Source of the DNA: Candidatus Micrarchaeota archaeon
GTDB taxonomy: Archaea; Micrarchaeota; Micrarchaeia; Norongarragalinales; UBA8480
Length of the DNA: 64,000 nt
Assembly: GCA_043805855.1 (NCBI GenBank)
Contig: JAZDHP010000005.1
Location: 1,132 to 65,131, forward strand
Direction: 5' to 3'
In this document: positions 6,379 through 37,010 of the stretch, piece after piece
How the letters are laid out: each line of letters begins with the position of its first letter
Numbering within the stretch: position 1 is the stretch's first letter
Program-made: the position numbers and the translations under genes
The notes under the pieces: generated by a model
The model's database searches: none
Told to the model about the DNA's origin: nothing
Seen by the model: the letters and a program-made list of their open reading frames with translations, nothing else

Positions 6379-6381
6379 CTT

Positions 6382-14659: not shown

Positions 14660-17600
14660 TCAATCATTATCTCCATTTTTAGCATTGTTACAATTAACGT
14701 CTGGTTTGAAATCTTTTCCTTCAAGCTCATCACTTACTCCATCGTTAGATATGACTGCACATACTTGTGGCAACGTCACTTTATTACCGCTGCGTAAATT
14801 ATACTCTCGCTCTGCGGTTTTTAAAACACGAACTGAAATTCCTGGGCTAAGGCCGCTAGCGGAACAAGATATCGTATCGTCAAGTTTAGCGGGTAAGAAG
14901 AATGGCCCGGGATTTGCAGCTTTCCATAAGTTTTCCACTGAAATTCCGCCAATGGCGCCAGCTAATCCAAGAATTATTGGACACCCAGCAATGTTTGTGC
15001 CCGGAGCAAAGCAAAGTAAACCAAGTGCAAAGCCAGTTAGTCCAATTGAATTGCCTCCACCGCAATTTCGCCCGATGGCTTTTTCATTATCGCGAACTTC
15101 AAACAAGTACTGGCCATTATTATTTCCTGTCCCTACAAACCGTAAGATAGCGGTAGTGCCACTTATCTTAAGCTTTGTAACATCATTTACACTAAAATTG
15201 TAAATTCCTTCGGTATTATCTGAGTCCGAAATTGCAAAATCCGCTAATTTCTTTATTGGTTTTCTAAATTTAACTTGGCGAATTAATTTATCCTCATCGC
15301 TATACACGTCAAAATTATAATGATAGTCTTCATTTAGCCACTTATCAAGTGGACCAAAAACAGAATAGAGTTCAACTTCAGCGACATCGACATCAACGCT
15401 ACCAACCCCCGTAAATGCCTTTGGTTTCTTTTTTAATTGTATAAACTTAGCTAATAAAAGAGGCGTTTCTACATTATCTATAGATTCTCCGCATATACGA
15501 GAATTGCCAACCCCAACACCTTCTCCAGATCGACCTAATACGTCTCCTAAACCTATCGGGTTGTCATAATGCAAATTACAGTCCATTTTATCACTGAATG
15601 CAGGGTCGTAAGCTGTAACAAACTTTATTTCTGGTTTTGATAAGTCAATTCCACCTAATCTAAAGTATTGCCCAGTAGCAAGTTGCACCGAATCACCGAT
15701 TTCTAACTGACATCTTAGCCAGTTTGGATTAGGCGCACTTATCTTTACACAATTTTTATCATAGTAAGCCGTATTATCAAGTCTAAAAGAAGCTTTAGCT
15801 TCACTAGTGTGGCAATCTTCATTTAAGTTTGGCCAATACTTACACATGTACCTTGTAGAGCTAGGCCTACTTTCTATTTCTGCTCTGAATGCAACTGGCT
15901 TTTTCACTTTGATGTGATTATTAGATATAACGTCAGCAGCAAGGAAAGAACTAGCGTCAAATGACACAGAACTGACCCCGTTATATATCTGCTTTGAACC
16001 TAAATCAATTAAACCAATTTGATCTATTTCGTTTTGATATTCAACGCGAAATTTAGCGGTCTCACCATCATATTTTGGATCAGTGCACAAACGTAAGATA
16101 AAACTATCTCCAGGAGCTATAGCATCGCCATCTTTCAAGTAACTAATTGTACCATCTACGTTGGTTTTTTGAAGTTCAATTGCGCTTGTAAGCGGTGCGC
16201 CTATTCTACCGCAAGCGTCGAAAGTTGCTTTGTTTAACTCAGTCGGCAAAGAAAACGGCGTTTCTGGGTAGTTTACAAACGATAACGGCGTAGCTTGCCC
16301 TTCTGCTTTTTGACCTGCCTGAGTCGTAACGATTGTTGGCCTAAAGCAATCAGCTGGATCACCATTCTTTTGCACACATTGATAGTATCGAGTTTCTAGA
16401 GTTGAAACGCCTCCTCCAACAGGCGCAGCTGTTTGTAGTTCTACTTTTATAGTATATTCATTTACCGCGTTTACTCCGACGTCACAACGGGAGAATTCAA
16501 GCGAATCAACTGCAGTTTCAGCAAGTGTTTTGTCAGCAACTTTGTAATTAGGCGCTTTTAGCGTGTACTTCTTTTGGTTTAGCTCGGTTACTTTTTGCGT
16601 TGTTTTATCTTTGCATGAATACTGAACCGCTATATACACGTCTTTTTTTCCTAGCGTTGCTAATCGTGTTTTGTCTAGTTCCACTTTAGTTGACACTTTA
16701 GTTAAACGATTCAAGTGTTCTGGAAAAGTTAGTCGAAAGATGTTAAACGTTGCTGGAGTTGCTGGTTTAAAGTAGCCGGGAGTTATTTTGTCAATTAGTA
16801 ATTGTCGGTCTGTTAAAGTAACTATACAATCATCTGAAACTTTTTGACCTGTTGGGTAAATTGCGCTTGCTTTGAAGCCAAATCTTTGACCCGTATCTCC
16901 TTTTACAGTATACTTTTGAGTATCGGCTTCTTTCGCACCGGTAAATGTTTGTTCATCAGTGAAAGAACCTCCAGTTTGTTGTTTTGTTACAATTACTTTA
17001 CGTTCATTTCCACCAGATGGAAAACTAGATTTTATTGTTAGTTCTTCACCAGACATGGCGTTACCATTGCAAACATCTTTTGTTCCGGCTAAAACTTGAA
17101 TTTTAGGTTGCTTGTTAGACGCACTTACTATTGGAGCCTCCACATGAGCCGGAGGTTCTGCTGGTTCAGCGGGGTTTAATTGTACTTGAGCCTCTGGTGC
17201 TTCTTTTGCTACTTTTGTTTGTTCGTAGGTAGCCATTATTTTAACTTCTACTTTTGCGTTTACATTTTGTGCTGAGGACACAAGTAGCTTTACAAATACT
17301 TTGCCGTCGTTTTCAAGTGCTTTTATTGCTCCTGCGTCGTCTTTAAAGTCGCAGTTTGTAATTAGCTCGTTGTCTTTTAGTTCAGCGTTGCAGCTAGCTT
17401 GTGATAGTTCACTGTTGTCTTTTGTTTGCACTGAAATTATCTTATACTTGTCAAATACAATTGGGCACGTTAGCTGCACTGTGACTGGGCTTGCGAATTT
17501 CCAAGCTGGCGTTACACTGACTTTCCTTGTTTCAGTTTCTCCGCATGCTGCGTCCCAAGTTTGTGCACCAAATGGAATTCCCGTTGGGCCGCCCATCATT

Positions 17601-20600
17601 GGACCTTGTGGTGCTGCAATTACATTTACGCGGATTGTCTTGCGCGCTCCATCTGGAAGTGTAACTTCGAGGTTTCCAGTTGCAGGGTAAGGTTGGCCAA
17701 CAAAGGAATAGTCGGCAGTTACTGTGATTGCGTCTTTTGTGCATTCGTCGATTTGTACAGCGTCTTTAACTGAATTTTGTGAAAACCCGTTGCCCATCTG
17801 GTATTGATTGTAGCCGTTTCCATTGTAATTATTGTAATTTGGCCCATATTGAGAGCCAGGTAATCCAACTGGATACGCACCTGGTCGATTGTACTGGTTT
17901 GCACCGTAGCCGTAATCTTGCCTTAGGATCCCGCCTGTTGAGCGGTCGTAGCTTACTTGTTGTTGCTGGTTGTAAGGTTGAAACGCTTGGTTGTACGGCG
18001 TTTGGTAGCCGTTGTAAGATAAAGGCGACATAAATGCTTGGGCTTGGTAAGCGCCTTGGCCAGTTTGGCACGCGCTGCAAGTTGCGCTAAGATGTACTGG
18101 CAATTGACTGCTTGTTGGTGCAGTTACTGGATTTGGAACGCATGCGCCGCACCCCCATTGCGAGGGAGTAACTTGCTGGCATTGGTTGCATTGCGATTGG
18201 CCGTTCATTGGCATTGTACACGCGGTGCACCACCATAAAACTGGAGTTGGCATTCCGCCTAGCACGCCACCTTGGTAAGTTTGACCGTAACCTTGACCAT
18301 ATCCTTGGCTATAACCTTGCTGGTATTGGCCAGCGTAGTTCATTCTCAAGCCAGATAAACGACAAGTTGGATCTGCTGATAAGCGTAGTGGAATTGAATA
18401 CGAGTCTTGCAAAAATGGCGGCATTGTAATTAATGTAATTGCGCCTGGCAATGGCGATGAATCGCTTCCAGTTGCAGCTGAGTTAATGCAACCTGGGCAT
18501 TCAACATCAACCATTAGAGGCAATTCTTCTGCTACTCTATACGTGCCAGCGCGTGCGGTAAACGTAGCAAGGCAGTTTGTGTTTGAAGTGACGTTGTTGA
18601 GAATTTTCAACGATAGCGTAGAGTCGCTGTTTGGCTCTATTGTTATAGATGTGGGAAATACTTTTAGTGGCACTGGATCGCCACCGCAATTAATTGACGT
18701 AGCAACGCGTATTGGTTCGTTCAATGCATTTGAAAGTGTAACTTGCTGTGCTTGTGGTTCAAGTGAAGACCCGGTAAATTCCATTGACTCGGGGTCAATT
18801 GCCAAGAAGTTTTTACCTTGCACAGTTACAGAGCATGTTTCAAGTGTCTTGAACCCTTCTGCTTCGACGCGGGCGCCGATTTCTCCAAGCCCAGTTGGGT
18901 TAACGTCAACTCGGTAGCGGCCAGTTAAACCATTGTTCTGCGAGCCGTCGCCTAGAAGTTGTTCTGGTTCGTTTCCAGAAAACGGCGAATTAGCACATTC
19001 GTATAAACCAACTGCTGCGGTTTCAACGTAGTTGTTGTTCTTGTCACGCACAACTATAGTTATTTTACTGTCTTGAAGTGCTGGCACTGTTGACGGCGCT
19101 ATTGTTGCTGTAAAGGCGTTTGTTCCAGATACAGTTAATTGCACTGGAATTTGAAATGTTTTACTTCCGCTGCGTAGTGTAAATGTCAACGGCGCGTCTT
19201 GGCTTACTTGCAACGGCGTTAAAGTCATTGACATTTTTGCTTTTTTGTTTGGAAGCGAAGTAAAGGGAAGGTTGAAAGTGCGGCCGCTTGTTGTTATTGC
19301 GCTAGCTGTAGTTGTAGCTGTTCCATCGTCTGCGAATGAAACTTTTTCTAAGCCGCTTAGAGTTTGGCGTGAGTTTTTCACGTTGAAGTGCTCAGTAGTT
19401 AAGCCAAGTGAATCAATTGAAACTGGCGAAAGTAATTCTAGTTCAAAGGTAAAGTCTTTTGCAATTTGCGGTTGGTATGTTGACGGGTTTCCCTGCGATG
19501 CACTATCAAAAAGGATTGCTTTCCAGCAAACGTCATCTTCAGTGCAAGTTAGTGTTTGTTGCGTTACTGGGATTGATTGAGTTACAACGCGCATTTGACA
19601 AGTGTCTTCTGGAGTTAAACGTAAACCTTCATCAATTTGTTGGCGTAGCGAGTCAAGTAGTTCAGTGTCGCTTGGGTAAATTAAAGGTAAGCCGTCTTTG
19701 AATGCAAATGCCTTGTAGTTTATTTTAATTTCAGCTCCTGCTTCTGCGGTTTTTGAAACTTTTACATTAACGACAAATTCTCTTGTGCCTGTAAAGCCAC
19801 GTGGGAACGAGAAGTAAACCCATTTCATTTCTTCACCAGCGTTGGTTTTGCCATTGTAACAAGATGAAGTTGAAGTGGCTGATGTTGACGTGGTTGAATT
19901 ATCTAACTCGCCGTTGTTTTCAGTGCTTTCCACGCTTTTTAATTCAGAGTCACTTTGAACATAAGGCGCGCCGTTGGAGTTGAATGAAGTTATAACCGCT
20001 GAACTCTCCGCAGTTGTTTGTTCGTCGCCAACTTGAACGTAAAACCCGGCGTTTTCGTCAACGTTTTGCGGCATGTTAACTGCGAATTTTGCACTGTACG
20101 TTTCTGCGTTGGCAACTTCTTTTGCTTTTACTCCCCGCGAGTCAAATAAACCAAGGAAGTTTACAGTTGCGCTTTGCGCGAGTGAAACTGGAAATAGTGT
20201 AACTGTTTCTTTTGCCTGTTCTGCTGGCGAAAATGTTTTTGTTGAAGTAACATAAGTTAAATATCCTGGCGCAGTTGCGCGTATTGTAAATTCTTTATTT
20301 GCAGCAACTGGCAAAACACAAGTACCGTTTAGCACGGTGCACGAAGAAACTGGAATTCCCTCTACAAGCGCTTCAATTGCACCGTTTGGGATTAGCTGGT
20401 CTGTTGCTAAATCTTTTAACGTAATTGAAACATTTGCAGGCATCGCAACTAAGTCAACCGTTAAAGATAACGGGGCGCTTGTTACGTCGACAACGTCACT
20501 TTGTCCACTTGCGGATTGTTTGGAAGCCTTTGCGTAAACTTTGTAAGCTGCACCTTCAACGGCTAATGGGATTGTCGCGTTTGCAATTCCTTCTCCGCCG

Positions 20601-21940
20601 GCAGTTAATGCTGGAATACCAAGGAAGTAGCCGCCGAATCTATATAAGGCAACTTCTGCGTTTGAAGCGGGAAACCCATCTTCGCGTACAACTACAGTAA
20701 CTGAAACTGAGTTTCCAGGAAGCACTTCTTCAAGGGCAATTGTTTTAACTGCGCCTGCTGCGATTCCAGCTAGGAAGCCAGGTAAGTAACCTTCACTATA
20801 AGCAGTTGCATATGCGTTTGTACTTTGCGAAACTGTAAATGTTGCTTCGCCGTTTGCGTTTGTATCTTGAGATTCAATTAAATTGTTAGACGCTGCGTCG
20901 AATAATTTTACAACGCCTTCAATTCCAGTTCTCTCGGCGTTTAGCAAAGTTATTGTAATTGTACTTTGCGGTGTTGAACGGCGAGCTAGTTGAATTGGTA
21001 ACTCGTTTGCGTTTGCAGTTGGAGTAAATTCCTGCGAGTAAGTTTCAAACTGCGGGTGCTTTACTTGAACTGTGAAAGCTTCGCCATATGAAACGTTTTC
21101 AAAAACTACACTGCCATCTTGATAAGTGCGTTCTTTTTTCTTTTCAACGCTAGTTGCAACGTCGATTAAAGTTACAACTGCATTTTGTACTCCGCTGCCC
21201 GCGGAAGAAACGTGAATTGTGAAATCTCCAACGCTAGTTGGATCCCGCTGCGTAAGCTGTACTGTTATTGTTATTGGCGTTGTGCTTTCAAGTTGTTCTA
21301 CTGTTACTGGCTGTTGAGTCGCTTGTACTCCAACAGCAGTTACAGAAATTGTTCCCTGCGATAGCATTGACTGCTCAACAGTTATTATCGCGTTGCCGCT
21401 TGCATCGGTTGTTGCCAACGGTGCGAAGTCACCGTTTGCAAATGTTAATTGCACTTGCGCACCTTGAACAGATTGACCTTGCGAGTCAACTACTCTAACA
21501 TTTACATCTTGAGTTTCTGGTTGCAGCGAGCGTAATGTAATCGAACCTGAAAGTGAAGAAACATCACGCGATGCTGGCGTAAATCCGTCTGCACTTACAC
21601 GTATAATTGCATTTACTGGAACGCCTTGTAGGCTAACAGTTCCATCTTGGCCTGCGCGTGTTTCTGAAATCGATTGGTTGTTTACTAGCACTTGTACAAC
21701 TGCTCCTGAAACTGACCTGCCGAGAGTGTCTTTAACTGTTAGTGAAACATTTTTCTTTTCTACAAACACCCCTGGCGCGAGGTAAAAAGCCGCAATTGCG
21801 AGTATTAATATTAAAACAAGCGGCACAATTAAATGTGGAAACGGCAATCCCTTTTCTGCTAGTTTTTCAACTAACTCTAGGTATTTTTCTTTTATATTTT
21901 GTAAAAAGTTTGGTTCAGCTTGTTCGGCCATTACACGCAC
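14660..21940 (-). CDS. Giant (2426 aa) cell-surface protein: N-terminal TM anchor, many Ig/CARDB/carboxypeptidase-regulatory-like beta domains, Cys-rich and Q/Y/G/N-rich low-complexity region
   Basis: Single uninterrupted 7.3-kb ORF. N-terminus ...PFPHLIVPLVLILILAIAAFYLAPGVF is a signal anchor. Motifs such as TVxDxxGxPVxGAxVxL recur. The low-complexity stretch is QYQQGYSQGYGQGYGQTYQGG...YNQAFQPYNQQQQ. Confidence 0.85.
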   Translation of the reverse strand: MRVMAEQAEPNFLQNIKEKYLELVEKLAEKGLPFPHLIVPLVLILILAIAAFYLAPGVFVEKKNVSLTVKDTLGRSVSGAVVQVLVNNQSISETRAGQDGTVSLQGVPVNAIIRVSADGFTPASRDVSSLSGSITLRSLQPETQDVNVRVVDSQGQSVQGAQVQLTFANGDFAPLATTDASGNAIITVEQSMLSQGTISVTAVGVQATQQPVTVEQLESTTPITITVQLTQRDPTSVGDFTIHVSSAGSGVQNAVVTLIDVATSVEKKKERTYQDGSVVFENVSYGEAFTVQVKHPQFETYSQEFTPTANANELPIQLARRSTPQSTITITLLNAERTGIEGVVKLFDAASNNLIESQDTNANGEATFTVSQSTNAYATAYSEGYLPGFLAGIAAGAVKTIALEEVLPGNSVSVTVVVREDGFPASNAEVALYRFGGYFLGIPALTAGGEGIANATIPLAVEGAAYKVYAKASKQSASGQSDVVDVTSAPLSLTVDLVAMPANVSITLKDLATDQLIPNGAIEALVEGIPVSSCTVLNGTCVLPVAANKEFTIRATAPGYLTYVTSTKTFSPAEQAKETVTLFPVSLAQSATVNFLGLFDSRGVKAKEVANAETYSAKFAVNMPQNVDENAGFYVQVGDEQTTAESSAVITSFNSNGAPYVQSDSELKSVESTENNGELDNSTTSTSATSTSSCYNGKTNAGEEMKWVYFSFPRGFTGTREFVVNVKVSKTAEAGAEIKINYKAFAFKDGLPLIYPSDTELLDSLRQQIDEGLRLTPEDTCQMRVVTQSIPVTQQTLTCTEDDVCWKAILFDSASQGNPSTYQPQIAKDFTFELELLSPVSIDSLGLTTEHFNVKNSRQTLSGLEKVSFADDGTATTTASAITTSGRTFNLPFTSLPNKKAKMSMTLTPLQVSQDAPLTFTLRSGSKTFQIPVQLTVSGTNAFTATIAPSTVPALQDSKITIVVRDKNNNYVETAAVGLYECANSPFSGNEPEQLLGDGSQNNGLTGRYRVDVNPTGLGEIGARVEAEGFKTLETCSVTVQGKNFLAIDPESMEFTGSSLEPQAQQVTLSNALNEPIRVATSINCGGDPVPLKVFPTSITIEPNSDSTLSLKILNNVTSNTNCLATFTARAGTYRVAEELPLMVDVECPGCINSAATGSDSSPLPGAITLITMPPFLQDSYSIPLRLSADPTCRLSGLRMNYAGQYQQGYSQGYGQGYGQTYQGGVLGGMPTPVLWWCTACTMPMNGQSQCNQCQQVTPSQWGCGACVPNPVTAPTSSQLPVHLSATCSACQTGQGAYQAQAFMSPLSYNGYQTPYNQAFQPYNQQQQVSYDRSTGGILRQDYGYGANQYNRPGAYPVGLPGSQYGPNYNNYNGNGYNQYQMGNGFSQNSVKDAVQIDECTKDAITVTADYSFVGQPYPATGNLEVTLPDGARKTIRVNVIAAPQGPMMGGPTGIPFGAQTWDAACGETETRKVSVTPAWKFASPVTVQLTCPIVFDKYKIISVQTKDNSELSQASCNAELKDNELITNCDFKDDAGAIKALENDGKVFVKLLVSSAQNVNAKVEVKIMATYEQTKVAKEAPEAQVQLNPAEPAEPPAHVEAPIVSASNKQPKIQVLAGTKDVCNGNAMSGEELTIKSSFPSGGNERKVIVTKQQTGGSFTDEQTFTGAKEADTQKYTVKGDTGQRFGFKASAIYPTGQKVSDDCIVTLTDRQLLIDKITPGYFKPATPATFNIFRLTFPEHLNRLTKVSTKVELDKTRLATLGKKDVYIAVQYSCKDKTTQKVTELNQKKYTLKAPNYKVADKTLAETAVDSLEFSRCDVGVNAVNEYTIKVELQTAAPVGGGVSTLETRYYQCVQKNGDPADCFRPTIVTTQAGQKAEGQATPLSFVNYPETPFSLPTELNKATFDACGRIGAPLTSAIELQKTNVDGTISYLKDGDAIAPGDSFILRLCTDPKYDGETAKFRVEYQNEIDQIGLIDLGSKQIYNGVSSVSFDASSFLAADVISNNHIKVKKPVAFRAEIESRPSSTRYMCKYWPNLNEDCHTSEAKASFRLDNTAYYDKNCVKISAPNPNWLRCQLEIGDSVQLATGQYFRLGGIDLSKPEIKFVTAYDPAFSDKMDCNLHYDNPIGLGDVLGRSGEGVGVGNSRICGESIDNVETPLLLAKFIQLKKKPKAFTGVGSVDVDVAEVELYSVFGPLDKWLNEDYHYNFDVYSDEDKLIRQVKFRKPIKKLADFAISDSDNTEGIYNFSVNDVTKLKISGTTAILRFVGTGNNNGQYLFEVRDNEKAIGRNCGGGNSIGLTGFALGLLCFAPGTNIAGCPIILGLAGAIGGISVENLWKAANPGPFFLPAKLDDTISCSASGLSPGISVRVLKTAEREYNLRSGNKVTLPQVCAVISNDGVSDELEGKDFKPDVNCNNAKNGDND

Positions 21941-22036: not shown

Positions 22037-23524
22037 TTATTTAAACTTGAAAGTCATTGTGCTTTGCAAGGCGTTTGATTCATCTTCGTTTACTTTAAAA
22101 CTAGGATCGCCGTCGACAATTTTTACATTTAATTGCAAACTAGCACCTAAATAAGGACTATAACCTTGGCCATCTAGATTGAGAAACGCGTCGCTTTGGT
22201 CGTAAATTACTTTTTTAATCGCGTCTTCACCAGTGCAAGTTACTGCAGTTCCAACGTGCGTACATCGCCCAACTGGAATATTAGCTTGCATAAATTCAAC
22301 GAAAATTAAATCAGGCATTTTGCCAACCGCAGGTTTAACAACCTGTTCGAAAAACCTTTCCACAAGTTTTTCCCGCGCGCCTTCGCGAGTTGCGTCGGTT
22401 ATTGATCCGCTTGACTGTGTGAATCCAATGTCATTTGGTAACGCGTTGGACGCACAAACTGCGCCATGGCACACGCCATCGAGTATTCCTTCTCGATCCA
22501 TATCATTTACTCCAATTTGCGGACCGTATGCTAAAAGTGAATAGAACTTAAACGCTGCATCTTCGTATTTCATTAACGGAAAAGCAATTGGAAGGTAAAA
22601 ATCTGCAGAGTCAGACAACGCGCCGGTGCGTAGATAATTTCCCGCGTCGTCTTTCACTTGCAAGCGCGGTAAACTTGCATAAACTTGGGGATTATTTGGC
22701 GTAACTTTGACAAAGAAAATTCCAGAATCACAACCCGGGATAATATTATCACCTTCGCATATATCGCCCGGATTTAATGTATCACGCTTGCAGCACTGTA
22801 AATTCCCGCGGCTAAATGCAGCGCAGTCAATTGTAACTCCTTGCATTAAATTTTTACAATTTGTAATATAAGTCTGGTAGTCAAAATCAGCACCGTTTCG
22901 CGGGTCAAAAAACTCTTGGAATTTAACAGCATTGCTTGGTGAGAGCGTCATACCTTCAAATTCAAATTTTTGGTTTATATTGCTCAAGAAATTTTGCAAG
23001 CCATACTTGTGGTTATTCATACAAGATGGTTCAGTTGCACGGCAGTCTGCTCGATTTCCACAATTACGATCACATTCAGTATCGCCAAGCGAATCTCCAG
23101 TGCTTGAACAAACTACGCTGTACAAACTATCTCTAATTCTAGTGCAACGCGTAAAACGCTCGGTTTTCAACGCCTCTTCCTTTTCACTTAGCAAATAACT
23201 AGGGCTGTTTGTAACTTCAATTCCGAAAATATCCCAACCTACACTTGTTAACGCTTGTTCAGTAACTGTTTTCAAATCTTCTCTAAATAAAGAACCAGCA
23301 TCGCTGCGGTAAAGTTCAATAATTGCAGAAATTCTATTCTGGTAAGCAGACTGCGCTATTTGCGAAACGGCGTTACTCTCCGCTTTGCTAATGCTAACAA
23401 CAAACACAATCGCAGTTACAAAAATAATCGTGCCAATGAGTGGCGCAGCGATGAAAGCTTTCTTCATGGAAAAAACAACACAAGCGTAATATAAAAAGTA
23501 ACTTCGTAAAACAATTAATGGCAA
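22037..23524 (-). CDS. Cys-rich secreted/anchored protein, unknown function
   Basis: 495 aa. N-terminal TM/signal MKKAFIAAPLIGTIIFVTAIVFVVSISKA, with many Cys in the mature part. Lies immediately upstream of, and co-directional with, the giant gene. Confidence 0.65.
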   Translation of the reverse strand: MPLIVLRSYFLYYACVVFSMKKAFIAAPLIGTIIFVTAIVFVVSISKAESNAVSQIAQSAYQNRISAIIELYRSDAGSLFREDLKTVTEQALTSVGWDIFGIEVTNSPSYLLSEKEEALKTERFTRCTRIRDSLYSVVCSSTGDSLGDTECDRNCGNRADCRATEPSCMNNHKYGLQNFLSNINQKFEFEGMTLSPSNAVKFQEFFDPRNGADFDYQTYITNCKNLMQGVTIDCAAFSRGNLQCCKRDTLNPGDICEGDNIIPGCDSGIFFVKVTPNNPQVYASLPRLQVKDDAGNYLRTGALSDSADFYLPIAFPLMKYEDAAFKFYSLLAYGPQIGVNDMDREGILDGVCHGAVCASNALPNDIGFTQSSGSITDATREGAREKLVERFFEQVVKPAVGKMPDLIFVEFMQANIPVGRCTHVGTAVTCTGEDAIKKVIYDQSDAFLNLDGQGYSPYLGASLQLNVKIVDGDPSFKVNEDESNALQSTMTFKFK

Positions 23525-24228
23525 AAGTTGTTTTGGTTTGGAACGAGCACCCGACTGAAGTTGTTGCGGGTTTCCATGCGAGGAAAGTTGCCGAAATTCT
23601 GAAAAATAAATACGGACACGACGTTGTAATTGAAAAAATTCCAGTTGCCGAGACTAACTATGGCATAATTAGAAATGGAAAGGGAAACAAAGCAAATCAA
23701 TTGCTTGCGCTTAGAGATTCTATAGATTTTTTTCCAAAAGATCCAAGTGGCACAAAGTTTATGTTTAATTTCCACGCTGCACCCGCAGAAAGAATAGGAA
23801 AAAGCACACAAATGCCAGCTAGACTTTTCAAGGTGAGTCATAAAAGATGGCAAGATAATCTTGAAAGATTTGCAACTGAAATTACAATAATTAAAGGAAA
23901 AGGCCGCCAATATGCAATTGAAATGCCTGGATATTTCACTCGCATCCCGGGAAACGCTTATAGAAAAATGCTAGAACAAAAACGAGAATTTGAAACTAAA
24001 GAAAGATCAAAAATTGATAGAAAAATCAGCGCTGGAACATACACCGCTAGAGACATACTTAAGCTAATGGAATTTGCAACTGCAACGCAAAACACTTACA
24101 CTATACAAAGAACCGCACTTCATACTAAAAGACAAAAGAAATTTTTGTCAAGCGACGTTTCCAAAAAAATCGCAGCAGCGATTCACGAGAGAATCAACGC
24201 CAGTAATACCAAACCGCGTAGAACGTAA
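23518..24228 (+). CDS. Paralog family A member 1 (MAKVVLVWNEHPTEVVAGFHARKVA... / ...KIAAAIHERI). Putative metal-hydrolase-like N-terminal domain.
   Basis: 236 aa. One of four paralogs, with 28486, 52914 and 53627. Conserved HxxE (NEHPTE), FNFH, IE(M/L)PG and a C-terminal S.KIAAAIH. A TATA-like gtaatataaaaag lies ~30 nt upstream. Confidence 0.7.
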   Translation: MAKVVLVWNEHPTEVVAGFHARKVAEILKNKYGHDVVIEKIPVAETNYGIIRNGKGNKANQLLALRDSIDFFPKDPSGTKFMFNFHAAPAERIGKSTQMPARLFKVSHKRWQDNLERFATEITIIKGKGRQYAIEMPGYFTRIPGNAYRKMLEQKREFETKERSKIDRKISAGTYTARDILKLMEFATATQNTYTIQRTALHTKRQKKFLSSDVSKKIAAAIHERINASNTKPRRT

Positions 24229-24688
24229 CCAGTCCAATTATGAGCGTTAACCGAAAGAGCACGTCGTGCAGTGGGACAAAAGCAGCTGTACCAAAACTAT
24301 TAATTGTAAACGCGATGCGAGCAGCGTTGAACAGCAAAAAGAAAACCACGCCAACAACAATTCCTTTTATTCTATAGTTGACGCTCCTATCTGCGCTGGC
24401 AGAAATAAAGCCAATTAACAACGCTAGCTCTAAAGCGCCGGAGCACAAGTCGCTAATTTCAATATCTCCACCTGGAATGAGCAAATGAGGAAATAACGGA
24501 GAGCCGGTGAAAACTAGCGAAGCGGATTTTCCAAGGAGCGTGAGGAAGAATTGTGCACCGCGTGCGGCAATTTCGTGGAGGAAAGTTGTGAACGTGAACA
24601 AAAAGTAAAGCGGAACTGCTATTGCAGCGGTTGTCACGATGAATTTAACTGCTTTTTGCAAATCATTAATTGCCATAGCTCTAATCAT
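24194..24688 (-). CDS. Mini archaeosortase/exosortase-like membrane protein
   Basis: 164 aa, about 5 TM segments. A Cys-Ser-Gly motif (DLCSGAL, C82), an Asn-x-x-Arg (FNAARIAF, R124) with Cys-to-Arg spacing of 42 aa, about the 41 aa I recall between the catalytic Cys173 and Arg214 of Haloferax ArtA. The family call is weak. Confidence 0.4.
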   Translation of the reverse strand: MIRAMAINDLQKAVKFIVTTAAIAVPLYFLFTFTTFLHEIAARGAQFFLTLLGKSASLVFTGSPLFPHLLIPGGDIEISDLCSGALELALLIGFISASADRSVNYRIKGIVVGVVFFLLFNAARIAFTINSFGTAAFVPLHDVLFRLTLIIGLVTFYAVWYYWR

Positions 24689-24867: not shown

Positions 24868-27747
24868 ATGGTTGACTTTACAAGTATAGAAAACAAATGG
24901 CAAAGCAAGTGGTACACTGAAAAGATATTTGAACCAAAAACTGAAAAAAATAAAGAGAAATTCCTTTTTACCGTGCCATACCCGTATGTTTCTGGCGCGT
25001 TGCACGTTGGCCACGGGCGAACCTACGTCAACGGAGATATCGCTGCGCGGTTCAAGCGCATGCTTGGTTACAACGTTATGTGGCCAATTGCGTTTCACAT
25101 AACCGGTACTCCAGTGCTCGCGGTTAGCTCAAAAATTGCAGCTGGCGACGAAGCTACGATTAAACTTTACAACGAATACGTTTCCATCTACGAAGAGGAC
25201 AAGAGCAAAGTTCCCGCGATTGTAAAAAGTTTCACTGAACCATGGAAATTGGTGAATTACTTTTCTAGCAAAATGATTCAGGATTTCAAGTCAATTGGTT
25301 TTTCACTAGATTTGTCGCGTCAATTTACAACTGGCGACAAGGAGTACAACGCGTTTGTCACGTGGCAGTTTCACAAGTACAAAGACGCTGGCTATTTGAA
25401 ACAAGCTAGCTACCCAATTCTATATTGCGTTAATTGCAAAAACGCAGTTGGGGAGGACGACATTCAAGACGCTGACACTGAACCAGTTGAAGTGCAGAAG
25501 TTCACCGCACCGAAATTTAAATTAAAAGGAGAAAAGGCGTTTCTCGTTACCGCCACTTTAAGGCCAGACACAATTTATGGCGTTACTAATCTTTTTGTTA
25601 AACCCGGCGTTACTTACGTTCGCGGCAAAGTGGAAATAAACGGAAACCCCGAAGAGTGGATATTATCACCGCAAGCTGCAGAAAAATTAGCGTTTCAGCA
25701 AATTAAATTTACAAAAATTGCAGAGATAAATGGAGATTCTTTAATTGGTAAAGAAGTTGAAACACCAACTGGTTCTATTGTACCAATTGTACCTGGAGAA
25801 TTTATAGAAGAAGAAACGGGAACTGGAATCGTTCACTCTGAACCTTCAGATGCTCCGTTTGACTTAGTTGCAATTGAAGAGTTGAAACGCGATGAAAAAA
25901 CACTTGCGCAATACCCCGGCTTGAAGGAAAAAGTAAACGCGATAAAATTCAAACAAGTAATTTCATGTTCAGGGTATTCAGAATGCCCCGCGTTGGATTT
26001 AGTGAAAAAGTACAACGTAAAAACTACAAAACAAGCAGATGTGCTTAACAAAATTACTAAACAACTTTACAAAGATGAGTTTTACGGCGGCAAAGTTGTA
26101 AACAGCGGCGAGTTCAATGGATTGCCAGTTGAACAAGCAAAGGAAAAGATGGCAGCTTGGCTTGAAAAAACCGAAAAAGCTCATCACATTTACGAAACTT
26201 CTCGGTTAGCAAAGTGCCGCTGCGGTGGAAAAGTTGTAACCGCTGTTATGAACGACCAGTGGTTTCTTGATTTCAATGCAAAGGGCTGGAAGGAAAAATC
26301 CCACGCTTGCCTAGCGCAGATGAAAATCTACCCGGAAAATTACCGAAAACAATTTGAAGATACATTCGCGTGGCTTGACAAACGTCCATGCGCGCGGCGA
26401 CGCGGGCTAGGAACGCAATTACCGTTTGCAAACGAGTGGATAATTGAATCTCTCTCTGACTCGACAATTTACCCAGCGCTTTACACTGTTATAAAAGAAA
26501 TTCGAGTGAAAAAATTAAAACCAGAACAACTTACGGTTGAATTTTTCGACTACGTTTTCCTCGGAAAAGGAAAACCTGAAGACGTCGCGAAGAAAATAAA
26601 GTGCAAAGCGAAAGATCTTGAAGATATACGCGCGGAGTTCGTTTACTGGTACCCGTGCGACCAGCGGCACACGGCAATTGCACACATTACAAACCATTTA
26701 TCGTTTTACGTTTTTGCCCACGCTGCGATTTTTGACAAAAAATTCTGGCCAAAAGCAATCACAGTAAACGAACTTCTCATCAGCGAAGGTACAAAGATGA
26801 GCAAGAGTAAAGGCAACGTCATAACGCTCGACGCTATTCGTAAAAATTACTCTGCTGACCTTTACCGCTTGTACTCAGTTGCAACTGCTGATTTTGCAAG
26901 CGTGCTTGACTTTCGCAAGGCGGATATTGAAAACTCGCGGAAAAGCTTAACGAGGCTTTACGGCGTGCTGGAAAACTTAATTGAACTTTCAAAGAAGAAA
27001 ACAAGCGCAAAAAGTGGAAAGAAAAAAGAATCAAATTTAACTGCGTGGATTTTAAGCAAATTCGAAAGCCGACTTGAGAAAAGCACAGCTGCAATTGAAG
27101 GGCTTGAATTGCGTTTATATGCACAATCCGCAATTTATGGCATTTTAAACGACTGGGAATATTTCGCGAAGCGCGCAAGCGAAGAAGAAAAAATAACCAC
27201 AGCAAAGCACATTGTCAAAAAATGGATTTTACTGCTAACGCCTTTGATTCCCCACTCGTGCGAGGAGTTGAACGAACAGCTTGGCGAAAAAACCTACGCT
27301 TCCCTATCACAATGGCCTAACGTTGAAAAGAAATTGATAAACCCTAACGTTGAACAGCGCGAGGAGTACGTAAAAAACATTTTTGAAGACGTTACAAAAA
27401 TTAAAGATGTAATCCAGCGCAAGAACAACAAACTGAAATTAACAAAGTGTACGTTAATCGTTGCAAGCGACGCGAAATGGGCTGAACTCTTCGCCGCGTT
27501 GAAGAAAGATTCGCTTGAAAAGGTGAAAACAACAAGCGAAGCAATGCAGAAACACATGGAAAAGCACTTTTACTCACTGCAAGAACAGCACGTTAAGCAA
27601 ATTGACGAAATGGAAGTTATTAACCAAGCTAAAACATTTCTAGAAAAGGAACTCACACTGACAATTGATGTTGAAAGCGAAGAGAAAAGCTCGCATGAAA
27701 AAGCAATTCGCGCAGTGCCGTTGAAACCAAGCATTGTGCTGGAATAA
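24868..27747 (+). CDS. leuS: Leucyl-tRNA synthetase (archaeal/eukaryal type)
   Basis: 959 aa. Class I HIGH motif (PYPYVSGALHVGHGRTY), KMSKS motif (KMSKSKGNV), CP1 editing-domain-sized insertion. GGAG-type RBS 8 nt upstream. Confidence 0.93.
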   Translation: MVDFTSIENKWQSKWYTEKIFEPKTEKNKEKFLFTVPYPYVSGALHVGHGRTYVNGDIAARFKRMLGYNVMWPIAFHITGTPVLAVSSKIAAGDEATIKLYNEYVSIYEEDKSKVPAIVKSFTEPWKLVNYFSSKMIQDFKSIGFSLDLSRQFTTGDKEYNAFVTWQFHKYKDAGYLKQASYPILYCVNCKNAVGEDDIQDADTEPVEVQKFTAPKFKLKGEKAFLVTATLRPDTIYGVTNLFVKPGVTYVRGKVEINGNPEEWILSPQAAEKLAFQQIKFTKIAEINGDSLIGKEVETPTGSIVPIVPGEFIEEETGTGIVHSEPSDAPFDLVAIEELKRDEKTLAQYPGLKEKVNAIKFKQVISCSGYSECPALDLVKKYNVKTTKQADVLNKITKQLYKDEFYGGKVVNSGEFNGLPVEQAKEKMAAWLEKTEKAHHIYETSRLAKCRCGGKVVTAVMNDQWFLDFNAKGWKEKSHACLAQMKIYPENYRKQFEDTFAWLDKRPCARRRGLGTQLPFANEWIIESLSDSTIYPALYTVIKEIRVKKLKPEQLTVEFFDYVFLGKGKPEDVAKKIKCKAKDLEDIRAEFVYWYPCDQRHTAIAHITNHLSFYVFAHAAIFDKKFWPKAITVNELLISEGTKMSKSKGNVITLDAIRKNYSADLYRLYSVATADFASVLDFRKADIENSRKSLTRLYGVLENLIELSKKKTSAKSGKKKESNLTAWILSKFESRLEKSTAAIEGLELRLYAQSAIYGILNDWEYFAKRASEEEKITTAKHIVKKWILLLTPLIPHSCEELNEQLGEKTYASLSQWPNVEKKLINPNVEQREEYVKNIFEDVTKIKDVIQRKNNKLKLTKCTLIVASDAKWAELFAALKKDSLEKVKTTSEAMQKHMEKHFYSLQEQHVKQIDEMEVINQAKTFLEKELTLTIDVESEEKSSHEKAIRAVPLKPSIVLE

Positions 27748-28485: not shown

Positions 28486-29193
28486 ATGGCAAAGGTTGTT
28501 TTGGTGTGGAATGAACATCCAACTGAAGTTATTGCAGGACACCACTGCCGGCAAGTTGCAAAACTCTTACGTGAAATGGGACACGAAGTTATTGTAAAGA
28601 AGATAGCCGCTCGCGACACAATATACGGAACAGTACAACACGATAATTACGCAGCTGCTGGGAAAAAATTACTAAACACAAAGCCAACCGCAGAGATTAC
28701 TGAAGAGTTTGCAAAAAATTTTAATGCAATTACTTTTAATTTTCACGGCTATGCTGCAACTGCTTTACGGCGGTATCGAGCTAAAAAACCAGAAAGATTA
28801 AAGATAAAAGAAAAGTTAGGCAAAAGCTCCTTGATAATACGTGGCGATATATGCTTTTATAGAATTTCACCGCATGCGTTTGCAATTGAAATTCCAGGCA
28901 TTATGGAAAAATTGCCAAGAGAAAAAAGAGCGGTTCAAAAAGAACGATTAAACCAAGCGCTATACGGGGCAATCAAAGCAAAGGAAAGGGCAAACGTAGG
29001 CAAATCATTATTAAAACGAATCGGGGATCATTCAATGCAAATGGATCAAATACTAAACACGACTGACGCTAAGTATCACCTAAACCGCATGCCAATGAAT
29101 TTGCCAGCACAGCAGAATTTTAAATCTCCAGTTATTTCTGAAAAAATCGCAGCTGCTATACACGAGCGGCTTACTTCGCAACGCGTAAAGTGA
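28486..29193 (+). CDS. Paralog family A member 2
   Basis: 235 aa. MAKVVLVWNEHPTEVIAGHHCRQVA...FNFHGYA...FAIEIPG...SEKIAAAIHERL. Confidence 0.7.
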   Translation: MAKVVLVWNEHPTEVIAGHHCRQVAKLLREMGHEVIVKKIAARDTIYGTVQHDNYAAAGKKLLNTKPTAEITEEFAKNFNAITFNFHGYAATALRRYRAKKPERLKIKEKLGKSSLIIRGDICFYRISPHAFAIEIPGIMEKLPREKRAVQKERLNQALYGAIKAKERANVGKSLLKRIGDHSMQMDQILNTTDAKYHLNRMPMNLPAQQNFKSPVISEKIAAAIHERLTSQRVK

Positions 29194-29835: not shown

Positions 29836-32109
29836 ATGACTGGCGAGTTCGTTATCAAGCAAGAGGGCAGCAAGCGTTTACTAATTATTGACTATAAAGG
29901 CGCGAGCGTTGCCCCAGACATTGCACTTTACCCGCAGGTAATGCGCGACGTTATTGAAAAGTTACAAACAAACGACGCAGACGAAGTTGTACTAGCTGAA
30001 TATTATGAGAGAATTTACAACGCTGAACAAACGTCAATGCTACGCGGAATAGCAGATTTAATTACAAAGATGGAAACTGAAACAGTTTGGAGTCCATCGC
30101 ACTTAGGCGGGGAACACAGTGACAAGAAAACTATCGCAGCGCGGCACGATGCTGTACTCGCAATTGTTAACCAAACGTACGTTGACCCGTTCACTGCTTA
30201 TCTCGAGTTAATAAAATTAGTAAAAGAAGGCGCTGGCAGTTATGCAAAGGCGCAAAGTGCTGGCGATGAAAAGGCTCTTGAAGATTTCAAAATTTTCCTC
30301 GGCACACTGCAGTTCATGAAAAGTTTGTTCGACAACACGTCGTTGATAAAAAAGAGCAAGCAATACCTGGCACAAATTGGTAAGATGCCAGAAGGCCGAG
30401 CGATTTACCACTCAATGTTCGAAAGCGCAATCAAACCGTCATTCATCGGGAGTAGGATTTTCTTCACTGGCGCGGAAACATTAGAGTTAGTTGACCAGTA
30501 CGAAGTGCTCGGCTCAAAAGTTTACATCTATAAACATCCGGAAAAAATCGAGTACCTTTACTACATTAACCCGCCAGAGTACACACTTTCGCCGGATAAA
30601 TACTTCCTCCTCCAGAAGACAAAAGAAGTTGTCGCGGGACATCGGCCAACTAATGTTGGGTTCATGGATATGGGTCAAGCGCGTAAATACTTTAGAAAGA
30701 TTTACGTTGCAACAATTGCAGATATTGCTAACAAGAACGATATTAAATTAACAGTAGACGAAAAAGAAGAGTTGGCAACAATTGTCTCGCGGTATACAAT
30801 TGGCTACGGTATTTTGGAACTGCTACTTTCAGACCGGCAGCTTACTGACGTTTACATTGACTCTCCACTGGGAGACAAGCCAATTTATTTAGTGCACTCA
30901 AAGTACGGACAGTGCCAGACGAACATTATTTTCTCTGAAGAAGAGGCAAAGGCAACTGTTTCGCGTTTCAGAGCTTTGTCAGGACGGCCGTTTGACGAAG
31001 CGCACCCGATTCTTGATTTTGACTTGGCTGATTTGCAAACTCGTATTGCTGCTATTGGAAAGCCACTTGCAGTTGACGGCACAGCGTTTGCGTTGCGTTT
31101 ACACAAGGACACACCGTGGACATTATCGCAGTTCGTAGATTTCAAAATGATGCCAGCATTGGCAGCAGGGCTCCTATCTTACTTCGTAGATGCACAGGCA
31201 TCGATGTTAATAGTCGGCTCTCGTGGTTCTGGAAAGACATCTCTCCTCCAGGCAATGATGCAGGAAATCCCGCAAAACTTGAGGATTATTGTGCAGGAAG
31301 ACACCCAAGAATTACCAATCCCGCAGTTGAAGCAACTTGGCTTTAATGTACAGCGTCTAAAAACACGACCGCCGCTTGGAGCGCAAAGTGACGCTGAAGT
31401 AAGTGCAGAAGATGCGCTGCGTACTGCACTGCGTTTAGGAGATTCAGTGTTAATTGTCGGCGAAGTACGTTCAGGAGAAGCAAAGGCGCTCTATGAGGCC
31501 ATGCGTGTCGGCGCAGTTGGAAACGTCGTCATGGGAACAATCCACGGCGAAAGCGCATATTCAATTTGGGACCGAGTAGTAAACGACTTAGGGGTTCCAA
31601 CAACTTCGTTCAAGGCAACTGACATGGTCATAGTTACAGCACCTATACGATTCAAAGGCTCTCTCAAGAGACAACGTCGTTTAGTTGAAGTTACTGAAGT
31701 TAAAAAAGAATGGACTGAAGACCCAGGAAAGGAAAATGGTTTCTTAAACTGGATGTTGTTCGACGCACACAAGGATAACATGGAGTTGTTCAGAGACGAC
31801 ATTAAGCAAAGCGAATGGATAAAGAAAGTCATGCGCAACCGCGGTATAAATTACGAAGACATCTGGAGCGAAATTGTAACCCGCGCTGCAAGCAAACAAC
31901 ATTTAGTCGACGTGAAGAACAAGCACAATATTCCAAAAATCCTCGAGGCAGAGAACAGTATACGCGCACACACGAAGTTAATGATGCTAGGCGAACGCCA
32001 GCGCGAGGAAAACGGCAAAGTTGACCACAAAGAGTTATTGTCAGAGTGGCAAAAGTGGGTCGACACCGTACTCGCGAAGGAAGTAATTGGATTAAAAACA
32101 CTGGGTTAA
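29836..32109 (+). CDS. Type IV pilus/archaellum-type secretion ATPase (FlaI/TadA/GspE superfamily)
   Basis: 757 aa. Walker A VGSRGSGKTSLLQAMM, Walker B/Asp box DSVLIVGEVRSGE, His box TIHGES. First gene of the pilus-like locus. Confidence 0.85.
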   Translation: MTGEFVIKQEGSKRLLIIDYKGASVAPDIALYPQVMRDVIEKLQTNDADEVVLAEYYERIYNAEQTSMLRGIADLITKMETETVWSPSHLGGEHSDKKTIAARHDAVLAIVNQTYVDPFTAYLELIKLVKEGAGSYAKAQSAGDEKALEDFKIFLGTLQFMKSLFDNTSLIKKSKQYLAQIGKMPEGRAIYHSMFESAIKPSFIGSRIFFTGAETLELVDQYEVLGSKVYIYKHPEKIEYLYYINPPEYTLSPDKYFLLQKTKEVVAGHRPTNVGFMDMGQARKYFRKIYVATIADIANKNDIKLTVDEKEELATIVSRYTIGYGILELLLSDRQLTDVYIDSPLGDKPIYLVHSKYGQCQTNIIFSEEEAKATVSRFRALSGRPFDEAHPILDFDLADLQTRIAAIGKPLAVDGTAFALRLHKDTPWTLSQFVDFKMMPALAAGLLSYFVDAQASMLIVGSRGSGKTSLLQAMMQEIPQNLRIIVQEDTQELPIPQLKQLGFNVQRLKTRPPLGAQSDAEVSAEDALRTALRLGDSVLIVGEVRSGEAKALYEAMRVGAVGNVVMGTIHGESAYSIWDRVVNDLGVPTTSFKATDMVIVTAPIRFKGSLKRQRRLVEVTEVKKEWTEDPGKENGFLNWMLFDAHKDNMELFRDDIKQSEWIKKVMRNRGINYEDIWSEIVTRAASKQHLVDVKNKHNIPKILEAENSIRAHTKLMMLGERQREENGKVDHKELLSEWQKWVDTVLAKEVIGLKTLG

Positions 32110-32161
32110 AACAACTTATTTAAAAACTCGTTTACAGTAAACTACTTTAGGTGAAAACTTT

Positions 32162-32719
32162 ATGCCGCAACGAAGACTGAAGAGAAACGAATTAAGCTCT
32201 GGAGAAATTAGACACTTGTTAACTACTACGAGACACCCGGTTGGACTAGCTGATACAATAGCTAAAGAACGGGGGCCAAAAGCAGCGAGTAAGTTATTGT
32301 TAATAGCTGAACAACAGACAAAAGCACCTTGGTTAAAAGCGCATACAAATTACTGGCCACGCGTAGGCGGTGCGGCTTTTCACACTAGTAATTATTTTGA
32401 GCGCGCTGGGCAGCATAAAGAAGGAGCTGCACTTTTATCTACATTTGGACAACATGTTGTAGCTGCAAGACTACTTGAAAAAGGTGGACACACTGAGCTA
32501 GCTGCAAAAGCGCATGAAAAAGCTGCTCGCGTTTGGCTAAAAGAAAGAAAATATTACCAAGCCGCTCACGCTTTTGAAAAAGCTGGAAAGCTTTTAGATG
32601 CCATGACCGCGTATAAAAGAGACGCTGCAAATGCAAAAAACCCAATAGACCAAGAGGAGTCACTTAACGAGGCAGCTAGACTTGCAAAAGTAACAAAAAG
32701 CCGATGGCAAAGAAAATAG
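32162..32719 (+). CDS. TPR-like helical repeat protein
   Basis: 185 aa. Repeated A/K/E-rich helical hairpins (ELAAKAHEKAARVWLKERKYYQAAHAFEKAGKLLDAMTAYK). Shares a PW(H)LKA motif with the next two genes. Confidence 0.45.
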   Translation: MPQRRLKRNELSSGEIRHLLTTTRHPVGLADTIAKERGPKAASKLLLIAEQQTKAPWLKAHTNYWPRVGGAAFHTSNYFERAGQHKEGAALLSTFGQHVVAARLLEKGGHTELAAKAHEKAARVWLKERKYYQAAHAFEKAGKLLDAMTAYKRDAANAKNPIDQEESLNEAARLAKVTKSRWQRK

Positions 32720-33123
32720 CTAAGTTGAGCACAATGGCCGAACAACTTGAAAAGCCGTGGCACTTGAAAGCTGCAGAAAGTTTAGGCCGCAGCGTAACGC
32801 CTCTATTTTCTGGAAAAGGCAAGTTAAAAGGACATGTAGCTACGTCGCCGGCGTTTGCGCCCTATTCAATTAGTTTTGTTGTGGATAGCAGACATCCTAA
32901 AGCGCAAGTGGTTAAAATAATCAACGGACGCAGCAAACGCGCGTATGTTTCAATTTATCCTGATGGCAGATTTGGTTCTTTAGCGCAGGGCACTCTTGGA
33001 ATAAGAACTTTAGCTGAATTTACAAGAGCAGCGCCTAAATCAAAGTTACTTAGGGACGTCCCGCAGTTAATCGCAGCTGCGAGAGCGGCGAACAAAGCTT
33101 TAAAGCAACACGCGCCCAAATAA
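32704..33123 (+). CDS. Small conserved hypothetical, tandem paralog 1 (PWHLKAA...ALKQHAPK)
   Basis: 139 aa. Aligns end-to-end with 33128..33511. Confidence 0.55.
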   Translation: MAKKIAKLSTMAEQLEKPWHLKAAESLGRSVTPLFSGKGKLKGHVATSPAFAPYSISFVVDSRHPKAQVVKIINGRSKRAYVSIYPDGRFGSLAQGTLGIRTLAEFTRAAPKSKLLRDVPQLIAAARAANKALKQHAPK

Positions 33124-33127
33124 AATT

Positions 33128-33511
33128 ATGGCTGAAGAACCTTGGCATTTGAAAGCTGCTAGAAGTTTAAACGGTGCAGTGAAGCCGTTGCTTATACAAG
33201 ACCGCCGAGTTTATGGTCACAGTGTAGCATTATCTGAACAACCAGTGTACACTGTTAATTTTGCTGATGGAAAAACTAACGGAGTAGAAGGTGCAAAAAT
33301 TCAAAAAGTACACTTAGGGGTATCCAAACGGCTATTAACAGTTACAAGAAATGGCAAGATAAACTGTCGCGTACCGAAATTAACTGGAATAAAGACATTA
33401 GCTGCGTTGAAAAAAGTTGACCCTAGAAAAACTAGTTTGCATGACTTGCCTATTTTAATTAAAATTGCAACTGCAGCGCACGAAGCGTTGAAAGCACATC
33501 AGCCAAAGTGA
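33128..33511 (+). CDS. Small conserved hypothetical, tandem paralog 2
   Basis: 127 aa. EEPWHLKAARSL...LIKIATAAHEALKAHQPK. Confidence 0.55.
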   Translation: MAEEPWHLKAARSLNGAVKPLLIQDRRVYGHSVALSEQPVYTVNFADGKTNGVEGAKIQKVHLGVSKRLLTVTRNGKINCRVPKLTGIKTLAALKKVDPRKTSLHDLPILIKIATAAHEALKAHQPK

Positions 33512-34283: not shown

Positions 34284-34335
34284 CTCCCCGACGTTACAAC
34301 TAACATATTTATACTTAGTTTGAATTGTTATTGTC

Positions 34336-36423: not shown

Positions 36424-36502
36424 TACACAGCTAAAGTGACATTATACCAATCAATAGCTACTTGGAAACGCTTTTATAAAACCGCTGCTAATTGTAGTAC
36501 AG

Positions 36503-36985: not shown

Positions 36986-37010
36986 ACCTGAAAGTTAAAG
37001 GAATTGAAAT

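Follow-up and report, generated by a model that had tools for sequence, protein, structure and literature searches.

The way in which surface proteins of archaea are anchored is determined by archaeosortase systems, and to our knowledge the only archaeosortase studied experimentally so far is ArtA of Haloferax. The proposed targets of ArtA are secreted proteins that end in a signature (PGF), a hydrophobic helix and a cluster of basic residues, and nine of them are predicted in Haloferax volcanii, including the S-layer glycoprotein. The residues Cys173 and Arg214, and also Arg253, are critical for ArtA (PMC9263693), and Cys, Arg and His are suspected to form the catalytic triad in the exosortase/archaeosortase family (bioRxiv 10.1101/2023.06.07.544157). 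The present analysis concerns a stretch of 64,000 nucleotides from a Candidatus Micrarchaeota archaeon (assembly GCA_043805855.1, contig JAZDHP010000005.1), hereafter the window, which encodes a short exosortase/archaeosortase-family protein of 164 residues (24194..24688, minus strand) and a secreted protein of 1354 residues with a tripartite C-terminal tail (44894..48958, plus strand), the candidate dedicated substrate of the former. The Micrarchaeota are host-dependent DPANN archaea, and a short archaeosortase subfamily conserved across them would be useful because their surface biology is little known.

Small archaeosortases have precedents among the described subfamilies, with the NCBIfam profiles of ArtD and XrtM covering 150 positions each, that of ArtE 153, that of the pacearchaeosortase (NF033505), which comes from another DPANN lineage, 167, and that of XrtX 168. 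In size the window sortase is therefore like ArtD (TIGR04175), ArtE, XrtM and XrtX. The partner signal of ArtD is PIP-CTERM. With ArtA the window sortase shares the TIGR04178 superfamily and a distance between Cys and Arg of about 41-42 residues; however, ArtA is about twice as long (271-position profile), its signature is PGF and not the ASLPxWPx[ED] discussed here, and against its nine predicted targets only one candidate was found in the present case. The arrangement of one target per genome, with the genes near each other, is known from JDVT-CTERM and the myxosortase MrtJ (bioRxiv 10.1101/2023.06.07.544157), but those enzymes are unrelated Rce1-like glutamic proteases and their pairs are typically adjacent, whereas the corresponding distances here are 20 kb in the window and 8 kb in a related locus, L033.

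The finding extends a well-known theme and brings no new principle. What is new is modest: a Micrarchaeota subfamily without a name, an undescribed candidate signature ASLPxWPx[ED], and the conserved association, within a DPANN lineage, of a short archaeosortase with pilus-like machinery, giant surface proteins and a pilin-like protein. In the literature searched on Micrarchaeota and exosortases, and on DPANN archaea and archaeosortases, passing mentions only were found.

Family Assignment of the Short Archaeosortase

The open reading frame (ORF) at 24194..24688, its motifs and its polytopic character were found as an earlier note, made from the sequence alone, had described them. The protein has 164 residues, with C-S-G from residue 82 and N-A-A-R from residue 121, so that Cys82 and Arg124 stand 42 residues apart. 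The positions Cys173 and Arg214 that the same note had given for ArtA agree with the published ones (PMC9263693). Four hydrophobic spans were located by a Kyte-Doolittle scan (residues 13-36, 78-96, 102-120 and 135-156), and the AlphaFold2 model, computed with 18 homologs as input, is confident (mean predicted local distance difference test score 90.4) and consists mostly of long helices (2-33, 36-51, 85-97, 103-130 and 137-162); residues 57-77, just before Cys82, form a short beta unit.

The NCBIfam signature hidden Markov model (HMM) TIGR04178, one of the two profiles proposed for checking the family assignment, matches the protein at E = 8.5e-9, with 35.6 bits where the curated cutoff is 23, and the other, Pfam PF09721, matches in the right register at E = 1.6e-4, with 21.6 bits and hence under its gathering cutoff of 25.7. 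Matches in the expected register were also obtained with six NCBIfam subfamily models (E < 1e-3). The search of 1.84 billion representative proteins gave 161 relatives at E <= 1e-3, most of which are about 160-200 residues long among the 150 matches listed, and the family comprises about 160 clusters at 50% identity. All of the 133 diverse homologs that were scanned, in two sets (38/38 and 95/95), match TIGR04178.

The conserved positions include the Cys, Arg and His of the suspected triad. Cys82 and Asn121 are present in 100% of 155 aligned homologs, Arg124, His141, Glu87 and Phe145 in 99%, and Arg146 in 90%, while the column identity across about 155 homologs averages only 20-36%. On the minus strand of the window the conserved codons lie at 24443..24445 (Cys82), 24428..24430 (Glu87), 24326..24328 (Asn121), 24317..24319 (Arg124), 24266..24268 (His141) and 24251..24253 (Arg146). 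Because the TIGR04178 cutoff is passed and Cys, Arg and His are near-invariant among the homologs, the membership of the protein in the exosortase/archaeosortase family is secure, and by its sequence it can be assigned there with high confidence. The family consists of polytopic cysteine endopeptidases of the membrane that are probably also transpeptidases, and such an activity is predicted for the protein encoded here. Cys82, Asn121, Arg124 and His141 would each occupy one end of a membrane helix, at or near the membrane surface, and by the positive-inside rule those ends would face outward because of the basic loop at residues 100-108.

A coincidental likeness to archaeosortases was the other possibility raised at the outset, and it is effectively refuted. 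In its favour could be cited the PF09721 score, which alone stays under the gathering value, and the lack of a solved structure for comparison, no relatives having been found by the sequence search of the PDB or by Foldseek of the model against the PDB. However, the signature model is matched above its curated cutoff, far beyond chance, and by every homolog scanned, the six subfamily models agree in the register, and the annotation by NCBI is the same: the identical sequence is deposited in GenBank as MFH0714064.1 under the name 'MAG: exosortase/archaeosortase family protein [Candidatus Micrarchaeota archaeon]'. Of the two alternatives formulated in the earlier note, a new subtype with a signal of its own or a mere coincidence, the family membership stood, while the sharing of the motif by other secreted proteins, which a general signal would imply, was not found in the sequence covered. 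Nor could the 164 residues be maintained as a novel minimal core, as the short NCBIfam profiles (150-168 positions) predate the proposal and the protein was already annotated.

Regarding the subfamily, the cutoff of none of the named ones (ArtA-ArtH, pacearchaeosortase, heimdallarchaeosortase, XrtA-XrtY) is reached by the window sortase. ArtD is the best-scoring, with 34.8 bits, and still falls far under its cutoff of 125; the corresponding values are 23.8 against 170 bits for XrtX, 22.3 against 125 for XrtM, 20.4 against 75 for ArtA, 20.2 against 95 for ArtE, and 15.7 against 80 for the pacearchaeosortase. Among the 133 homologs scanned none approaches any named subfamily either (best E = 2e-17), and the pacearchaeosortase model is matched weakly by 36 of them, at best with E = 4e-10, so that the two short DPANN enzymes belong to separate subfamilies. 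A genome scan with one genome per species, for which an alignment of 16 sequences served as the query, returned 12 sortase loci with 37-60% identity, all from metagenome-assembled genomes (MAGs) of Candidatus Micrarchaeota/Micrarchaeia. The window sortase belongs to a subfamily without a name, of about 160-200 residues, that is apparently centred on the Micrarchaeota.

The Secreted Protein and Its Tail

The ORF at 44894..48958 and the layout of its C-terminus, a short motif followed by a transmembrane helix and a basic tail, were likewise confirmed. The protein starts with MNLKGNLSAFFIIIFTLEIFSPLAFA followed by YTP, and its residues 5-28 form a hydrophobic span; by inspection this is a Sec-type signal peptide ending near ...SPLAFA (about 44971, plus strand). 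It ends in ...NSLASLPSWPEESPILLVVIVLTLLAVAFVRWRKV, or, by parts, ...NSLASLPSWPEESP-ILLVVIVLTLLAVAFV-RWRKV. The tripartite tail thus occupies 48851..48955 and consists of the signature N-S-L-A-S-L-P-S-W-P-E-E-S-P (48851..48892), the hydrophobic helix ILLVVIVLTLLAVAFV (48893..48940, residues 1334-1349) and the basic end RWRKV (48941..48955, residues 1350-1354), all on the plus strand. Neither Pfam nor NCBIfam domains were found in the protein, and the PDB contains no sequence relatives of it. An identification with the S-layer protein of 'Ca. Micrarchaeum harzensis' was considered and rejected, the latter having TIGR01564-type domains and the former no Pfam or NCBIfam match.

Six orthologs with 48-53% identity were obtained by a word-based search limited to 8000 candidates, with seven clusters in all. 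Two metagenomic loci also encode orthologs, of which one matches P0023 and the other apparently lies on the contig of P0025. The tail N-x-[LF]-A-S-L-P-[SAG]-W-P-x-[ED]-x-x, with a helix of 16-19 residues and an Arg after it, is kept in 8/8 orthologous sequences examined, and further basic residues follow that Arg in most of them. The N, the A-S-L-P, the W-P and the first Arg past the helix are invariant in seven orthologs, all of them orthologs of one protein. In an alignment of 1418 columns the signature ranks 10th among the conserved windows of ten residues and stands behind a variable linker, and owing to this high rank and the variability upstream it is a conserved island and not a similarity at the level of drift.

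The tail motif had been said to be neither PGF, PEF nor VPXXXP, and this holds: no NCBIfam CTERM model (PGF, PEF, VPXXXP, PIP, Loki-CTERM and others) reaches its cutoff on the five tails scanned at E <= 10. One of the tails matched PEF-CTERM and Loki-CTERM below threshold, with 13.9 bits in each case (cutoffs 23 and 19.9, respectively), and the others nothing. The ASLPxWPx[ED] tail motif is, accordingly, undescribed. A search of a collection of 5.8 billion proteins with a profile of the tail gave nothing at E <= 10, the seeds included, and a short hydrophobic tail profile is probably incapable of significance at that collection size.

The Tail as a Possible Sorting Signal and Its Proposed Pairing with the Enzyme

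The tail was compared with the criteria of Haft for sorting signals, which include the site at the extreme C-terminus, the helix, the basic cluster and the N-terminal signal peptide on the carrier, and also several occurrences per genome, carriers that are unrelated to each other, and homologs elsewhere that lack the signal or bear another one (bioRxiv 10.1101/2023.06.07.544157). The tail of the 1354-residue protein agrees with these in the extreme C-terminal position, the helix and the basic cluster (criteria 1, 4 and 5), with the same layout in the orthologs; in the invariant signature, within the orthologs of one protein; and, by inspection, in the signal peptide (criterion 6). A homolog with another tail (criterion 8) is known from a single example, in L033, the product of which ends ...TATTTPTGK-IALILFIATILGGVIAI-RKKGKK..., that is, with TPTGK before the helix and RKKGKK after it. 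This homology concerns the membrane-proximal domain (pairwise E = 3e-7) and is accompanied by reciprocal matches to all orthologs.

We propose, as a candidate reading whose probability we put a little below an even chance, that the sortase at 24194..24688 and the 1354-residue protein form a specific dedicated pair. Regular co-occurrence of an enzyme and its target as nearby genes is the criterion for such pairs (bioRxiv 10.1101/2023.06.07.544157). In the window both genes are located on one contig, 20 kb and 23 proteins apart; a second MAG, GCA_053535675.1, has both the sortase and an ortholog of the 1354-residue protein, on two contigs; and in L033 a distant sortase homolog is found about 8 kb from the distant homolog of the tailed protein. 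Furthermore, L008 encodes a pair of large, mutually paralogous secreted proteins of about 1200 residues (52..3555, minus strand, and 4348..7974, plus strand), which adjoin a sortase of 45% identity and share a tail composed of APRAAG(V)GLD, a helix and basic residues, which is possibly a second signature for the same sortase family. In one of these two proteins an extra proline-rich extension of 45 residues follows the helix. This support for the pairing is circumstantial, suggestive but thin. Tailed large secreted proteins recur near the sortases and the signature shifts as the enzyme diverges, a recurrence that fits co-evolving enzyme/signal pairs and equally well lineage-specific membrane anchors.

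If the pairing is true, the 1354-residue protein would be exported by Sec and transiently retained in the membrane through the helix at its C-terminus. The signature adjoins that helix and would then lie on the same side of the membrane as Cys82, Asn121, Arg124 and His141 of the sortase, and the enzyme could cut within or beside ASLPxWPx[ED]. As in the case of ArtA from Haloferax, the mature protein might, by analogy, remain attached to a lipid of the membrane or to some other moiety on the surface. Such a case would provide one more enzyme/signal pair and a usable annotation rule.

A number of observations weigh against this pairing. Several occurrences of the signal per genome and unrelated carriers (criteria 2 and 7) were not found in the sequence covered, a result that is provisional: no second such tail is present among the ORFs of at least 100 residues in the 64 kb of the window, and none of the LPxWP type outside the orthologs of the 1354-residue protein in 393 kb of related loci. 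The scan of metagenomes for Nx[LF]ASLP[SAG]WP gave 60 pattern matches, which reduced to two confirmed loci, both encoding orthologs. ASLPxWP is not kept in the distant homolog from L033, and the genes of the sortase and of the 1354-residue protein are never adjacent in the loci seen. Finally, the architecture of the tail alone is weak evidence for sorting because an ectodomain, a helix and a basic stop-transfer end are common to all type I membrane proteins. The earlier note had named the lack of the tail motif in other secreted proteins as a reason to drop its proposal, and the finding that only orthologs carry the tail counts against a general sorting signal. The pairing would therefore be that of one enzyme with one target, as the motif was found in the orthologs of the 1354-residue protein only.

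The same confinement to one orthologous family is what the main alternative explanation builds on, according to which the sortase is real, while the tail of the 1354-residue protein is a permanent type I anchor with a conserved juxtamembrane motif and the true targets are elsewhere, either among unlinked proteins of the genome or among the products of the operon partners of the sortase, processed in a non-canonical way. We regard this explanation as quite possible, with a probability of roughly a third. It is favoured by the distance of 20 kb to the tailed gene, as opposed to the genes of the sortase, of a pilin-like protein and of a giant surface protein, which in most loci of the Micrarchaeota overlap or directly follow one another; by the different juxtamembrane sequence in the distant homolog from L033; and by the far wider distribution of the sortase, with its approximately 160 clusters at 50% identity against seven for the tailed protein. 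However, the narrow spread of the latter may reflect the limits of the word-based search with its 8000 candidates, and the signature is far better conserved than the linker that precedes it, which is unusual for a passive anchor. As to targets among the operon partners, the pilin-like and giant proteins have neither a C-terminal helix nor a basic cluster, which tells against this alternative, and distant orthologs lack the sub-terminal hydrophobic stretch that the giant protein has. The missing C-terminal helices of these tightly linked partners weigh against the dedicated pair as well.

Conserved Gene Neighbourhood

In the window the sortase gene (24688->24194) is followed on the minus strand by the gene of the pilin-like protein of 476 residues (22037..23467, read 23467->22037), the next conserved gene, and by that of a giant surface protein of 2423 residues (14660..21931, read 21931->14660), the third gene of the cluster. 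The order of sortase, pilin-like and giant protein is repeated in L003, L004, L006, L007, L011, L012, L016-L020, L022 and L024, with spacings of 40-60 bp or an overlap in several of these loci. This operon-like order, which the earlier note had overlooked, is the strongest signal in the gene context of the sortase. Divergently from the sortase, the gene of leucyl-tRNA synthetase (LeuRS; 24868..27747, plus strand) serves as a marker of synteny, and this divergent arrangement is also present in L003, L006, L011, L012, L017-L022 and L024. A homolog of the giant protein is encoded behind the sortase of 45% identity in L008 as well. In L033, the sortase homolog of which is much more distant than that of L008, a protein of 1968 residues takes the place of the giant one and has the same faint Pfam families (Big_1, CarboxypepD_reg, SpaA), the resemblance being by families alone.

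The 476-residue protein has no Pfam match and was recognised as pilin-like by its N-terminal motif. In the window it begins with M-K-K-A-F-I-A-A-P-L-I-G-T and a hydrophobic helix, and in its family the N-terminus always consists of a basic residue, [AG]-F-[IV]-A-A-P-L-[ILM]-G-T and a hydrophobic helix, which, from this motif alone, looks like the archaeal class III (type IV pilin-like) signal. The giant protein contains CarboxypepD_reg and Ig-like domains (Pfam) and, according to the map of hydrophobic segments, is anchored by an N-terminal helix. A hydrophobic, Gly-rich stretch that lies some 100 residues ahead of its C-terminus was considered as an internal sorting signal, comparable to that of the Tat substrate of ArtA, and rejected because no basic cluster accompanies it and the distant orthologs in L017, L018 and L020 do not have it. 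The window encodes a second giant protein (1..4008, minus strand, running past the start of the window), which is a paralog of the first with 25% identity over about 1000 residues; each of them combines a cytoplasmic segment at the N-terminus with a single helix and with CarboxypepD_reg repeats. In the relatives two or three giant genes stand in tandem behind the sortase.

The gap between the genes of the sortase and the pilin-like protein is, in the own clade of the window, filled by toxin-antitoxin genes or by a multi-copy gene of 236 residues, and it looks like an insertion hot spot because the 236-residue paralog in the window and the toxin-antitoxin modules in the relatives occupy the same gap. 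The multi-copy gene is one of four paralogs of about 230-236 residues, all on the plus strand (23518..24228, 28486..29193, 52914..53621 and 53627..54319), with the copy 23518..24228 sitting in the gap. All four products begin with MAKVVLVWNEHPTEV[VI]AG[FH]H, and no Pfam or NCBIfam family was found for the copies that were scanned, 23518..24228 and 28486..29193.

The sortase is separated from the candidate substrate by a type IV pilus-like locus, which extends over 29836..39989 on the plus strand. It encodes a T2SSE ATPase of 757 residues (29836..32109; Pfam T2SSE, E = 1.2e-22), a T2SSF/PilC-like membrane protein (34336..36423; Pfam T2SSF, E = 4.5e-4, below the cutoff) and five small proteins with, by inspection, pilin-like N-termini (36551..39989). 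Type IV pilus-like genes flank the sortase also in L006, L011, L013-L015 and L033. The T2SSE ATPases of L003 (1..2882) and L011 (2235..6011) reach about 1257 residues; that of L003 contains an intein with a LAGLIDADG domain, the ORF of L011 (1258 residues) is known from its length alone, and the ATPase of the window has no intein.

The recurrence of the pilin-like, giant and pilus-like genes beside it in the relatives makes the sortase a constant member of a gene cluster for surface structures, composed of pilus-like machinery, a pilin-like protein and giant, N-terminally anchored, adhesin-like proteins. This fixed site gives a concrete handle on how the Micrarchaeota build their attachment surface. 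The conserved placement between genes of the pilus machinery and giant surface proteins may also be read differently, namely that the protein has the exosortase fold and is no longer a sorting peptidase, being, for example, a structural or assembly part of the pilus-like or giant-adhesin apparatus. With such a role would agree the finding of no multi-protein target set in the 64-kb window and the 393 kb of related loci, as well as the scores below the Pfam gathering cutoff and every named subfamily cutoff. However, near-invariant Cys, Arg and His in about 155 homologs of 20-36% column identity are what a retained catalytic site would show, and because of this invariance the non-catalytic role is unlikely.

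In the broadest form of the dedicated-pair proposal, the minimal archaeosortase, the pilin-like protein and the giant adhesin operon by the type IV pilus-like machinery would constitute a lineage-specific surface-assembly module of the Micrarchaeota, in which a single dedicated anchor protein is processed via ASLPxWPx[ED]-CTERM and which is a candidate builder of a host-attachment structure. This is a speculative extension, rather improbable as a whole.

Other Features of the Window

An archaeal rRNA operon with large insertions occupies 56452..63768 on the minus strand. The match of the 16S rRNA (61332..63768) covers 2437 nt against a model of 1478 positions, and that of the 23S rRNA (56452..60704) 4253 nt against 2987 positions. 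Three ORFs of LAGLIDADG endonucleases lie inside the rRNA spans (62398..62931 and 58015..58575, minus strand; 56954..57619, plus strand) and two just downstream of the operon (55952..56518 and 54706..55404, minus strand), and the insertions are probably introns with homing endonucleases.

A multi-copy family of 340-445 residues with the N-terminal motif (S/P)RHGWLPG is encoded at 40026..41099, 41131..42468 and 49767..50951 on the plus strand and possibly at 7109..8125 on the minus strand; the three products scanned, those starting at 40026, 41131 and 49767, have no Pfam match. Tandem paralogs of 139 (32704..33123) and 127 residues (33128..33511), both on the plus strand, have in common E(K/E)PWHLKAA close to the N-terminus and, at the C-terminal end, ...AA..A(N/H).ALK.H.PK. 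A NUDIX hydrolase (50970..51509) and a Fic/DOC-family protein (51972..52892), also on the plus strand, are encoded between the ScpA-side genes and the pair of 230-236-residue paralogs that begins at 52914.

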